Shown here: positions 1 through 3,604 of the stretch, piece after piece | How the letters are laid out: each line of letters starts with the position of its first letter | Position numbering within the stretch: position 1 is the stretch's first letter | DNA from: a virus | Length of the DNA stretch: 64,000 bases | Virus record (IMG/VR): IMGVR_UViG_2706795158_000001 | Span: 39,335-103,334 of that record | Strand: one strand, 5' to 3' | The notes under the pieces: model-generated | What the model was told of the DNA's origin: nothing | Database searches by the model: none | The model's input: only the letters and a program-made list of their open reading frames with translations | Program-made: the position numbers and the translations under genes

Positions 1-3000
1 AAGTACCTCACTATAAGCACGGTAGAGAAGGTAGAAGTAGTCAAGGGGATGCTTGGATGCACCCAGAGGTGTTTGACGACAACTATGAGCGCAAAACGAA
101 TTCTGACATAAGACGTTATACAAGTTCTTTGTCGAAATCGAATCGTTTGGTTGTTGACATTAGCAAGGCAGAAGTACCGAAAACTGGTAGGACTTTGAAT
201 AGGGGAAAACTCGTCAAGAGAGCGGTACAGGTAAAAGGTAAAGATGGAAGAACCTTTACTCGTATGCAATGGGTAGACCCAAATGATGACCACCAAATAC
301 AGTCCCACCCACTACATCAAGAGCCTTCACTGGAAGGTACAAAGCCTACTTCCTCTAAAGACCCTAGTGAGATGTCTCGTGAAGAGTACGTAGACCATCA
401 TGTTCGTAAGAAGATGTCCAAAGAAGAGAAGTATGATATGCTGGACAAACATGGTATTGAGTGGAAGCGAAATAACCATGAAGCTATTGACCATAAGAAT
501 GCTGTAATGGCTCTAAAACAGCATCTATTGAAGAATCCTCACCTTATTGGTGCACACAATAATAAGGAAGAAAAGGATATTGAGAAGCCATTGACAGGTA
601 CAGATAATGAGAATGAGTTCTGGAATATGTGGGATAAGGCTGACAGAGAGGGTTCATATGAGCTTATGCGTAAGCTAGGTATCATTGATAAGGATGAGCA
701 AGACCCTAGATTCGACCCTAATGTAAAGGAAAACATGAAGCCTATTAAACACTTATTGAACGTTACTCGTTTGAAGAAGTACCTAAAAGAAAATAGACAC
801 ATCATGACTAACCCTGAGTATCTGCCTACTAAAGATACAAATGCAACTAAGGTTAAGAAAAAGGAGTTAGAAGATAAGAAACAAGGTATAAAGCCATCCC
901 CTGCACAAGCAGGTGGTAGCGATGTCCACACTATCTTATCCAATATGCCAAGGGAACAGTTATACAAGCTAATGAAGGATGCTGGTATTGCTGATGAAGA
1001 CCCACTTATCACAGGAGATAAGATGGCAGGGGTTAAGCATCATCTTAATATGATTAAGTTCAAGAAGCATCTAGAACAGCACCCTGAAATATTAACTCAC
1101 AATCCTGATGGTTCTCTTACAGAAGGTGAGAAGGAACGTATTGCCTCCCTACCTGAGGAAGCTAAAGAACGTGACCGTATTAAGAGCTTTGTATCTGATA
1201 TGTCTCAAGAAGACGTAGAGGAGGCACTAGACAAATATGCTGACCATGATGCAGTTAAGAACAGAACTACTTCTGACCATGAAGGTATTAACAATATGCA
1301 CGCAAAAGGCGCTCTAGTAAAAGTGTTCTCTGAAGATAAGGAGAGAATGAAGCCTTATCAGAAAGAAGTAGATGCTGATAGACTGATGAAGATGCGTATT
1401 GGTAATAAGGTTATGGGTAAATTCTTACGTCATGCTTTTGGCTTTAAGGGTATGGGAGACCTAAAAAGACCTGAAGATGATGAGTTCCGTACTACAGAGT
1501 GGCAATGGCATGGTAACGGTGGTAGTGGCTCTGCTATGATGGAGAAGAATGATAATGGAGAAGCAGTACTAACCGTTATCGACTATGGGGAAGATGGTCA
1601 AGGGTGGAACGAATCTCAAGTCCCTCTACAACAGGTTAAAGACTTTGTAGATGATTTGAGAAAAGGGAACGAACAGAAGAAGAAAGTTGAGGCGAAAGAG
1701 GTTCCCCTACAGAAGAAGCCAGCAGACCAGATAGAAAAAGCCCTAAACGAGAATTTTGAAAAGAACTACACTCCAGAGGTCGGGGAGGTCATGCAGTCCC
1801 ACTTCACTAAGCTATGGAACAATTCAAACCGTTCAGGTAAGATTAGTGACATAGTGAAGAAGTCTATGAATATGACTAAGGGTACTATGAGAAGCCTACT
1901 TAAAGAGTGGAATGTTCCAGTCTCTCCTACAGGGGACATTATAAAGACTAATGACCCTAACTTTAAGGCTATGGTATTCAAGGATGAGATTCAGGATAAG
2001 AAGTCTAAGAGTGCTATGGATTACCTTAAAGCAGCAGACATAGGGGTAGACCGTAAAGCTACACCAGATGCTCCCTATGACCCTTATGTACTACACGAAT
2101 CAGCTAAGAACTGGACAGAAGGAGAGAAAGCACAAGCACGTAAGGAGCTATTAAAGAATGCTATTCATGTTAAGACTGGTATTACACATGAAGACCATGA
2201 CAAGCGTATAGCCAAACTTACAGACCATCTCCATTCATCCACAACTCATATACCGTTTGACTTGATGAGTCATCTATTAGCCAACGGTATGAAAGTTAAG
2301 TTCTCTGATATAGATGCACATGGTAATGCTCATACAGGGGCTAACTATAATGGTAAGGACAACGCTATTTACCTAGATTCCCAGTACTATCATGATAAGT
2401 CTGTGTTCAAAGACCACCCACATGACCACATACCAGAGAAGACAGAACATCCTACTATCAAGGGTGCTAAGTACGGACACTGGAGTATAGGTGAGAATAT
2501 GGTGCATGAATCTGCCCACGCTATTGACAGATTCCTAAGTGGTGGAGACTCCTATTTAAACTGGGATAAAGGGCATGGAACTACTTATGCTAGTGACCAT
2601 TTAAATACTGTTCCTGAACATTATAAGAAGAAAGTTGAACAGTCTAACCCTGATAAGGAGATTAGATACAGCAAGGAAGGAAAGTATTTTTATGTTTTAG
2701 ATGAGTGGATGTCCAACTATGAAGGGCGTGTCTATGGGGAGTACCAGAAACTCAACCCTGATTATGTTCACTCTGACCATGATACAGGCAAGATGTACGA
2801 TAAGAAGTTCCAAGGCGTTGAGGGTATGCATGGTACTGAACACTGGGCTGAATCAGTAGCAGGCTACGGTAATGCTATTCATTCTTACCAACGTTGGAAA
2901 GACATGAATCCAGGTAAGAAAGATACCTCTATGGATGACTGGGCTGAACAAATGCATAAGCAATACTCACAAAAGGGCTTTGGTACTGCTAACAGTGAAG

Positions 3001-3230
3001 GTCAAAACTATAAGGTGGGTACAAGCACTAAACCAATGGAGTCTTATGGTTGGCAATACCACACAATGAAGCAACACTATCCAGAGCTATTTGGTGCAAT
3101 GCAGTCCATCTTTAATAGACCCGACTTCTTAGGACAGAAGGGGCAGAGCCGAACAGAGTCAATTCAACATGGAACTTCAGCTAAAAAATCTCTAGGCTTA
3201 TTCGTTGATTTGGGAGGGAGCAAGGCATGA
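1..3230 (+). CDS. Large multidomain protein, 5'-truncated by the window edge; putative internal head protein with C-terminal ATLF-like zincin metallopeptidase domain
   Basis: Frame is open from position 3 through the Met at 57, so the gene probably starts upstream. HESAH at 2505-2519, preceded by GANYNGKDNAIYLD and followed by EHWAES (Glu at 2850). About 4 internal helical repeats. Lies upstream of the portal. Confidence 0.6.
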   Translation, partial: VPHYKHGREGRSSQGDAWMHPEVFDDNYERKTNSDIRRYTSSLSKSNRLVVDISKAEVPKTGRTLNRGKLVKRAVQVKGKDGRTFTRMQWVDPNDDHQIQSHPLHQEPSLEGTKPTSSKDPSEMSREEYVDHHVRKKMSKEEKYDMLDKHGIEWKRNNHEAIDHKNAVMALKQHLLKNPHLIGAHNNKEEKDIEKPLTGTDNENEFWNMWDKADREGSYELMRKLGIIDKDEQDPRFDPNVKENMKPIKHLLNVTRLKKYLKENRHIMTNPEYLPTKDTNATKVKKKELEDKKQGIKPSPAQAGGSDVHTILSNMPREQLYKLMKDAGIADEDPLITGDKMAGVKHHLNMIKFKKHLEQHPEILTHNPDGSLTEGEKERIASLPEEAKERDRIKSFVSDMSQEDVEEALDKYADHDAVKNRTTSDHEGINNMHAKGALVKVFSEDKERMKPYQKEVDADRLMKMRIGNKVMGKFLRHAFGFKGMGDLKRPEDDEFRTTEWQWHGNGGSGSAMMEKNDNGEAVLTVIDYGEDGQGWNESQVPLQQVKDFVDDLRKGNEQKKKVEAKEVPLQKKPADQIEKALNENFEKNYTPEVGEVMQSHFTKLWNNSNRSGKISDIVKKSMNMTKGTMRSLLKEWNVPVSPTGDIIKTNDPNFKAMVFKDEIQDKKSKSAMDYLKAADIGVDRKATPDAPYDPYVLHESAKNWTEGEKAQARKELLKNAIHVKTGITHEDHDKRIAKLTDHLHSSTTHIPFDLMSHLLANGMKVKFSDIDAHGNAHTGANYNGKDNAIYLDSQYYHDKSVFKDHPHDHIPEKTEHPTIKGAKYGHWSIGENMVHESAHAIDRFLSGGDSYLNWDKGHGTTYASDHLNTVPEHYKKKVEQSNPDKEIRYSKEGKYFYVLDEWMSNYEGRVYGEYQKLNPDYVHSDHDTGKMYDKKFQGVEGMHGTEHWAESVAGYGNAIHSYQRWKDMNPGKKDTSMDDWAEQMHKQYSQKGFGTANSEGQNYKVGTSTKPMESYGWQYHTMKQHYPELFGAMQSIFNRPDFLGQKGQSRTESIQHGTSAKKSLGLFVDLGGSKA

Positions 3231-3604
3231 AGGTAGTTATTCACAAAGACGGAAAATTGGGTACGGTAAAATATAGCAAAGATGGTCAAGCTATGGTGAG
3301 TCACCCTGATGCTAAAGTTAGGAAGGCTGTAAAGGACTACTTAGACACTGAACGAGAGTTTACAGTAGCAAACCCTAATACAGACCCTGATGTAGTTGGT
3401 TCTAGGAGGAAGCTTTATGCTTCCCCTAAAGCCAATGAAGATACAATGTCTATGGCTTTGTGTGAGATGTTTCACCATACTGGAGTACATGTGGACTGGT
3501 CTGGTCAGATGTCTAAGGATTTCCTAGGACAGAAGGACAAGAACAGTAAAGCAGACAAGCCTATTGAGAAATCAATAGTAGACGATTTCAATATTATAAA
3601 CTAG
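3227..3604 (+). CDS. Hypothetical protein (125 aa), translationally coupled to the upstream metallopeptidase protein
   Basis: ATGA overlap with the upstream stop; SD GGGAG; IEKS motif near the C-terminus. Confidence 0.8.
   Translation: MKVVIHKDGKLGTVKYSKDGQAMVSHPDAKVRKAVKDYLDTEREFTVANPNTDPDVVGSRRKLYASPKANEDTMSMALCEMFHHTGVHVDWSGQMSKDFLGQKDKNSKADKPIEKSIVDDFNIIN

Follow-up and report, generated by a model that had tools for sequence, protein, structure and literature searches.

What might a protein of 1086 residues without an assigned function do when its gene stands at the border of a phage head-gene block? The question is raised by the first gene of a 64,000-nucleotide stretch of the IMG/VR record IMGVR_UViG_2706795158_000001 (bases 39335-103334 of a 138,877-bp phage; hereafter, the window), whose first 6 kb share 97.6% identity with Bacillus phage JL and 91% with CP-51. 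Both phages are classified in the genus Siminovitchvirus (Herelleviridae, Spounavirinae) and, judged by these identities, the source of the window is a Siminovitchvirus phage as well. The gene (window 1-3230, plus strand, as are all features within it) appears in the window as an open reading frame at 3-3230 that is open at the left edge and encodes 1075 residues, which are numbered here from window base 3. Its full start, the ATG at G000:39304, precedes the window by 31 nt (G000 denotes whole-record coordinates, and G000:38019-39332 equals L006:14020-15333), so that the first 11 codons lie outside and the complete product has the same 1086-aa length as its homologue JL gp87, annotated as a hypothetical protein, and as phrog_23829, a matching profile of 1086 positions without assigned function. 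Searches of Pfam, PADLOC, the PDB (by sequence and by profile) and ESM Atlas features returned no family for gp87 or for its downstream neighbors gp88 and gp89. We propose, giving the reading as a whole an even chance, that the phage head module includes gp87 as a multidomain cargo protein, for which a leader and an N-terminal module would provide loading, to be followed by trimming, ejection and cleavage of a substrate.

The first step toward an answer is the C-terminal region of the protein (aa 695-1045, window 2085-3137). A sequence-only reading of this stretch had placed a zincin domain here, marked by the motifs HESAHAID at 2505-2528 (aa 835-842) and EHWAES at 2838-2855 (aa 946-951), and both occur exactly at these positions. 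An exhaustive HMMER search with aa 700-1075 as the query against 1.84 billion representative proteins returned only 31 clusters, nearly all of them proteins of ~1000 aa with the same C-terminal domain; the lowest-scoring match, P0035, looks spurious. We class the family as clade-restricted. An alignment of 29 homologues, which share 26-41% identity with the query, shows H835, E836 and H839 without variation (29/29) and at least 90% conservation of D842, E946, Tyr906 and Tyr911 of a Y-E-G-R-I-Y motif, and an R-x-D near the end. The motifs did not arise by chance, given the invariant H, E, H and the distal glutamate conserved at that level. The tyrosine motif, which reads Y-E-G-R-V-Y in gp87 (window 2718-2735), lies in an insert of ~100 aa between the two zinc-binding helices.

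AlphaFold2 modeling of the last ~390 aa with the homologue alignment gave a confident model (pLDDT 89.5, pTM 0.90), in which HExxH resides on helix 140-156 and E946, the candidate third zinc ligand, at the start of the long helix 256-279 (model numbering). Strands 75-79, 91-94 and 99-103 precede the active-site helix, the latter two corresponding to GANY (window 2337-2348) and AIYL (2364-2375), which had been proposed as strand elements from the sequence and are indeed beta-strands in the model. An all-against-all structural search with VIA-align against 48,161 PDB representatives placed the catalytic domain of anthrax lethal factor first (Z 10.3, 181 residues aligned, rmsd 4.3), followed by PPEP-2 (Z 9.3), PPEP-3 (Z 8.9), the uncharacterized Klebsiella metal-dependent hydrolase 3dl1 (Z 8.2) and the ATLF-like N-terminal domains of lethal factor, edema factor and Certhrax (Z 7.2-8.2), with M13 peptidases, which are unrelated zincins, matching lower (Z 6.0-6.8). 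Zincin peptidases or ATLF-like zincin-fold domains account for 27 of the top 29 matches, and the remaining two (ranks 15 and 23) are HExxH-motif proteins that are not peptidases. In Foldseek, PPEP or lethal factor occupied all top 50 rows, with weak E-values of ~0.01. Weak fold matches to MuF, minor capsid and PolyVal proteins were seen as well. On the strength of the VIA-align and Foldseek matches, a zincin fold is well supported, with lethal factor and the PPEPs as the nearest solved relatives. We therefore hold with high confidence that the domain adopts this fold; in the model, a gluzincin metallopeptidase domain whose HExxH...E site is intact and conserved takes up the C-terminal 350 aa.

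How close is this domain to lethal factor itself? The sequence-only reading had compared its layout to that of lethal factor and other ATLF-type peptidases. The resemblance in layout stands, in that HEFGHAVD and EFFAEA of lethal factor recall the family consensus HEFAHAID and EHWSE, but membership in the ATLF family is not supported. Pfam ATLF (PF07737) has no match at E ≤ 1 in the 29 family members and none at E ≤ 10 in a six-frame search of the genome, and a PDB profile search with the domain family did not retrieve lethal factor. When the family profile was compared with lethal factor from pXO1 by hhalign, only 18 columns aligned, with a probability of 15%; these correspond to the active-site helix (HEFAHAID vs HEFGHAVD), the sole stretch that aligns between the two. 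Lethal factor carries HEFGH at 719, Tyr761 and EFFAEA at 768, so that 49 residues separate the first histidine from the ligand glutamate as opposed to 111 in gp87, where the extra residues form the conserved insert and the spacing exceeds the roughly 40-50 residues expected of an ATLF/M34 member; furthermore, the position seven residues before the ligand glutamate, Tyr761 in lethal factor, is Val939 in gp87 and variable across the family. MPTase-PolyVal (PF18818) likewise has no match at E ≤ 10 in the genome and none in the 29 members. Taken together, the sequence comparisons indicate a distant lethal-factor-like gluzincin that forms a family of its own and is not an ATLF member. An aspartate three residues after HExxH, along with a histidine that ends strand 2, has been described as a trait of one phage-type zincin clade (Iyer et al., PMC5512222), and the residue of gp87 that corresponds to the aspartate, D842, is nearly invariant; no conserved histidine is found in the strand columns, for which strand equivalence with that clade is not established.

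The second step concerns the genomic setting. The gp87 gene lies upstream of the portal gene (window 4248-5843, plus strand), as had been read, but is not directly adjacent to it, for gp88 (125 aa, window 3227-3604, plus strand) and gp89 (180 aa, window 3615-4157, plus strand) intervene. The gp88 frame overlaps the stop of gp87 as ATGA (3227-3230), again in agreement with the earlier reading, and translational coupling of gp88 to gp87 is credible because a strong ribosome-binding site, the Shine-Dalgarno sequence GGGAGGGAG, is located inside the last codons of gp87. Six loci identified by exact-protein look-up and 20 from viral contigs were scanned with zincin, gp88, gp89 and portal profiles, and the order zincin protein, gp88-like, gp89-like, portal, with the protease, scaffold and capsid genes next in line, was found in 24 of 25 loci; these 24 represent about 12 lineages with identities down to 28%, one of them ending at a contig end before the portal. 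Phage S4-1, in which gp87 seemingly occurs without gp88 and gp89, was set aside, its record being an unverified partial genome. The gp88 protein belongs to no known family, always follows the large gene and has homologues only in phages with gp87, a co-occurrence pattern from which we conclude that the two genes form a unit that is present or absent together. The gp88 protein is probably a co-inherited accessory protein, possibly a chaperone or an inhibitor; the earlier idea that it is a partner of gp87 draws its support from this co-inheritance. Two strong terminator-like hairpins flank the four-gene block formed by gp86, the gene directly upstream of gp87, and gp87-gp89: one with a 12-bp stem at L006:13958-13985 and one with a 13-bp stem at window 4152-4181 (plus strand), the latter marking the end of the block ahead of the portal gene. 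A check of the 35 nt that precede gp86 revealed no sigma-70-like promoter.

The 25th locus (IMGVR_UViG_3300032829_000320, L036) departs from this order in an informative way. Here a terminase and an SPP1-type portal are followed directly by a 687-aa protein (4672-6735), at the canonical position of MuF/gp7 minor head proteins, whose residues 149-242 give a weak Phage_Mu_F match (E 3.8e-4) and whose C-terminus, residues 440-684, is a distant homologue of the zincin domain of gp87 (hhalign probability 99.3%, E 2.5e-20) that retains HEFAHAID, N-Y-E-G-R-I-Y and E-W-W-S. Its N-terminal 330 aa share 55% identity with proteins that end in DUF3626 instead (P0057, P0059), and because a similar N-terminal region carries either one, the gp87-type zincin and DUF3626 are interchangeable C-terminal domains. 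Such domain exchange is the pattern described for polyvalent proteins (PMC5512222) and, reportedly, for MuF-borne effectors. We consider this arrangement on a MuF-like post-portal protein the strongest indirect argument for the zincin as virion cargo.

If gp87 is cargo, which part of it could direct loading? At the DNA level, window 192-289 resembles two further genomic sites, and this resemblance led to the recognition of a shared module of ~40 aa near the N-terminus (window 147-281), composed of a leader and a beta-hairpin (KLVKR-V-V-KGKDG-TF-RMQWV-P in gp87). The leader conforms to [LV]-x-[LIV]-[ILV]-[DN]-[IV]-x-K-[AG] and is followed by L-N-x-G-K-L-x-K-R-x-V-x-V-K-G-K-D-G-x-x-F-x-R-M-Q-W-[VI]-x-P. 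Besides gp87, the module is found in four other proteins of the phage and starts at the initiator methionine in three of the five carriers; it is strong in gp87, a 437-aa protein, the 618-aa paralogue of the latter and a 932-aa protein, and divergent in gp89. Among isolated phages, strong copies are confined to JL, CP-51, S4-1 and Exiguobacterium phage vB_EalM-132, with three to four copies each. The 437-aa protein, JL gp86 ('PE-PGRS family protein'; G000:C1:38019-39332), bears the module at its start and a weak acetyltransferase (GNAT) match at aa 224-319, and the same two parts make up the 618-aa paralogue at G000:14375-16228. The 932-aa protein (G000:C1:27457-30255, L006:3458-6256) combines a weak ParB_N match, the module (aa 205-249) and helical repeats of the gp87 kind, and ends in DUF3626 (E 2e-7), an architecture that resembles polyvalent proteins. 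The zincin and DUF3626, the two domains carried alternatively at the outlier locus, are therefore both also found behind the 40-aa module in this phage.

The leader further coincides with candidate sites for the prohead protease. Against a background of 0.56 occurrences per 100 aa over 196 crude gene calls genome-wide, the 271-aa scaffold (window 6677-7492) contains 13 copies of the motif [LIVMF]-x-K-[SAG] (binomial p = 7e-9) and the 253-aa S78 prohead protease (window 5902-6663) nine (p = 2e-5); it is these two proteins whose degradation would be expected as the head matures. The motif is likely the maturation cleavage motif of this phage; it is also found at residues 24-27 of the capsid protein and twice in the portal N-terminus. 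An S78-type protease, that of HK97, cuts its capsid protein between Lys103 and Ser104, a site that agrees with the motif. In gp87, L-S-K-S and I-S-K-A, the latter ending the leader L-V-V-D-I-S-K-A, both fall within a predicted disordered linker (window 129-170). All 36 of 36 sequences in the gp87 family share the leader lysine (aa 55), and the residue after it is G, A or S in 34 of them; 13 of 38 homologues begin directly with M-x-L-Y-I-D-L-x-K, and many long-form homologues carry a second K-[SG] immediately before the leader. At the other end of the protein, a disordered C-terminal tail (window 3138-3227) terminates in K-K-S-L-G-L-F-V-D-L and resembles the N-terminal leader, with T-R-K-S-x-x-L-x-I-x-L as the consensus in most homologues, and the tail of gp88 reads I-x-K-S-I/L ... 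I-I-N (I-E-K-S-I...I-I-N in this phage) or K-S-L-Y-I-D-L. Both tails look like a leader-like element placed after a site, and candidate cleavage at each such site would strip an L-x-I-D-L element. A separate likeness was noted between the C-terminal part of the protease (window ~6400-6520; E-K-A-L-S-A-G-Y-E-T-N-P ... F-R-K-E-S-L) and a capsid segment (~7580-7690; N-K-A-L-S-A-G-H-E-V-N-P ... F-R-V-E-S-L) just after the candidate capsid site.

We therefore propose a model in which the N-terminal leader (L-x-I-D-L-x-K with G, A or S as the next residue), together with a retained beta-hairpin module, would direct gp87 into the prohead. There, cuts by the S78 protease at x-K-[S/A/G] sites would remove the leader and likewise the C-terminal tail that resembles it. 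Translation of gp88 would begin at a start codon coupled to the stop of gp87. Mature gp87 would exit with the DNA at infection, and the zincin could then cleave a host protein or process co-delivered phage proteins. The steps of this model differ in how firmly they can be held: packaging in the virion is somewhat favored, processing by the prohead protease is plausible, a host-directed protease function is possible yet doubtful, and injection followed by cleavage of a host defense protein, as put forward by the sequence-only reading, is wholly inferred.

Several observations weigh against the cargo model. Literature searches for virion proteomics of JL, CP-51, Goe2 or relatives of SPO1 found nothing usable, and the Goe2/Goe3 paper contains none. 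The family shows no conserved tyrosine at the lethal-factor position across its 29 sequences. The proposed cleavage rule is inferred rather than measured, and its motif is not enriched in gp87 overall (6 in 1075 aa). MuF genes normally lie downstream of the portal, whereas gp87 is encoded upstream of it with two small genes between; gp87 itself has no Phage_Mu_F match, and that in the distant 687-aa homologue is under the Pfam cut-off. Finally, because the hairpins part the gp86-gp89 block from the portal operon, co-expression with the head genes is an assumption.

This last point, along with the negative outcome of the search for virion proteomics, also speaks for what we regard as the most serious alternative, albeit an unlikely one, namely that gp87 is a late cytoplasmic, non-virion protein whose zincin acts on host or phage proteins in the infected cell and whose position among head genes is historical. 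SPO1 makes heads without gp87 and gp88, from which it follows that both are dispensable for assembly. A purely cytoplasmic enzyme is nevertheless hard to square with strict synteny with head genes in ~12 lineages, with a leader and a tail that resemble protease sites, and with the same domain on a MuF-like post-portal protein.

Somewhat less probable still is a second alternative, in which gp87 is packaged but its zincin cuts phage proteins, either gp87 itself or the co-packaged module proteins (ParB/DUF3626 and acetyltransferase-like), thereby freeing active domains. Iyer et al. 2017 (PMC5512222) argue for such autoprocessing in polyvalent proteins, with DdrB of phage P1 as the model, and both the long disordered linkers of gp87 (aa 46-64 and 96-116) and the four other multidomain proteins with its module would suit the idea. 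The phage, however, already encodes an S78 prohead protease, and the motif of that enzyme explains the candidate sites; beyond the x-K-[SAG] sites, gp87 showed no conserved position that might serve for self-cleavage, and gp87 is retained in relatives without a gp86-like neighbor. The weakest alternative, that the zincin-like domain is a binding module that titrates a host regulator, or an exopeptidase only, and not an active endopeptidase, could draw on the top-ranking matches to 3dl1 (Z 8.2; presumably MtfA, a regulator-titrating protein) and to the inactive N-terminal ATLF-like domains of lethal factor, edema factor and Certhrax (Z 7.2-8.2), as well as on the catalytic tyrosine of lethal factor not being conserved at the equivalent gp87 position, but is very improbable given that the inactive domains lose HExxH while the gp87 family keeps H, E, H invariant and the third ligand conserved at 26-41% identity, and that other conserved tyrosines (Y-E-G-R-I-Y) could replace the function of the missing one.

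What the remainder of gp87 contributes to the proposed cargo protein is less apparent. A model of aa 1-708 built from 38 sequences (pLDDT 80.8, pTM 0.50) shows disorder at aa 46-64 and 96-116 on either side of a beta-hairpin at aa 71-91, and fold searches of this region gave no convincing structural relative (best Z 5.6); since the model is multidomain with a pTM of 0.50, this lack of matches is no proof of new folds. An N-terminal extension (aa 15-44, window 45-134) found only in long-form homologues is predicted to be helical and bears the conserved motif D-x-W-[ML]-H-P-E. Helical repeats occupy aa 126-480 (window 378-1442) and recur in the 932-aa ParB-like protein; at least three copies are present in gp87 and in that protein, and a 153-aa open reading frame at L006:7737-8198 carries one copy. 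They are followed by a small domain of one helix and a four-stranded sheet (aa 468-553, window 1404-1661) with weak resemblances (Z 4.4-5.3) to fungalysin propeptide/YpmB-type and PUR-type folds, and by a helical region (aa 574-674, window 1722-2024) that is weakly winged-helix-like (Z ~4.8). Repeated matches of aa 459-567 (window 1404-1700) to protease propeptide-type domains, all at noise level, include the fungalysin propeptide 4k90_B (Z 4.6), YpmB 2gu3 (Z 4.4) and 2mqd; as a PepSY profile search of the genome had no match, the idea that this segment could be a built-in inhibitor domain serves as a lead only. The 1075 residues read from the window contain no cysteine and are rich in histidine (58) and lysine (125).

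The last gene of the block, gp89, links the locus to a wider group of phages. It combines the divergent N-terminal module with a Lys/Glu-rich tail and is a homologue of SPO1 gp5.3, to which it shows 65-73% identity over the first 55-62 aa and which is also encoded directly before the portal, in the SPO1-like order ribonucleotide reductase, gp5.1, gp5.2, gp5.3, portal. The gp89 N-terminus is conserved in SPO1 gp5.3 and all SPO1-like phages, and its first 60 aa are near-invariant across relatives. Conserved as it is across Spounavirinae, gp89 is a candidate for a protein that is internal to the head or associated with DNA. Unlike the phage studied here, SPO1 and its close relatives lack gp87 and gp88.

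If the cargo reading is extended from gp87 to all carriers of the module, it would amount to a T4-like but unrelated capsid-loading system for enzyme cargo in Siminovitchvirus-like phages, an analogy that we advance tentatively and consider less likely than the packaging of gp87 itself. Two elements would make up the mark: one to be removed, either the leader L-Y-I-D-L-x-K or the C-terminal tail K-S-L-x-I-x-L, and one to be retained, the beta-hairpin of 30 aa; the five marked proteins would be the zincin, two acetyltransferase-like proteins, the ParB/DUF3626 protein and the SPO1 gp5.3 homologue, all subject to S78 trimming, and the same cargo domains would ride MuF scaffolds in other phages. 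To our knowledge, no defined signal for loading effector proteins into the head has been described for phages of Gram-positive bacteria. Were the proposal true, the module and leader would reveal the full set of proteins ejected by CP-51-like phages, whose hosts belong to the B. cereus/anthracis group, and the loading signal could be used to package proteins of choice. In the zincin, phages would then deliver a protease whose fold is known otherwise from proteases that bacteria secrete, and identifying its substrate could point to a target in host defense or takeover. If gp87 is not packaged, it would be one more uncharacterized phage metallopeptidase.

Three known systems invite comparison with gp87. 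With lethal factor and PPEP-1/2/3 (MEROPS M34, ATLF) it shares the closest solved folds (Z 8.9-10.3) and, with lethal factor in particular, the active-site helix HEF[GA]HA[VI]D and the third-ligand helix E-[FH]-[FW]-[AS]-E. In contrast to these proteases, gp87 is not secreted and its domain is fused behind ~700 aa of phage-specific domains, and unlike in lethal factor the insert carries the conserved Y-E-G-R-I-Y. In phage T4, the internal proteins and Alt bear a capsid targeting sequence, a short N-terminal leader that ends in a prohead-protease motif, and the likeness here lies in several unrelated proteins with a common leader ending in a putative protease motif. The present phage differs in its S78 HK97-type protease, in the motif x-K-[SAG] rather than L/I-x-E, and in a similar element at the C-termini of gp87 and gp88. 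Effectors fused to MuF have reportedly been described as well, by Jamet et al. in 2017. The third relative is the group of virion-delivered polyvalent proteins, whose commonest domain is a zincin peptidase (PMC5512222) and which gp87 recalls as a big multidomain phage protein encoded beside head genes with the zincin at its C-terminus. Unlike them, gp87 contains neither MuF nor ArdC-N nor any other of the known hub domains of polyvalent proteins; in contrast to both polyvalent and MuF proteins, its putative carrier is the new 40-aa module and its gene lies upstream of the portal. We thus regard gp87 as a candidate member of the zincin-bearing phage cargo proteins, in which the candidate loading signal could prove more interesting than the protease it accompanies.

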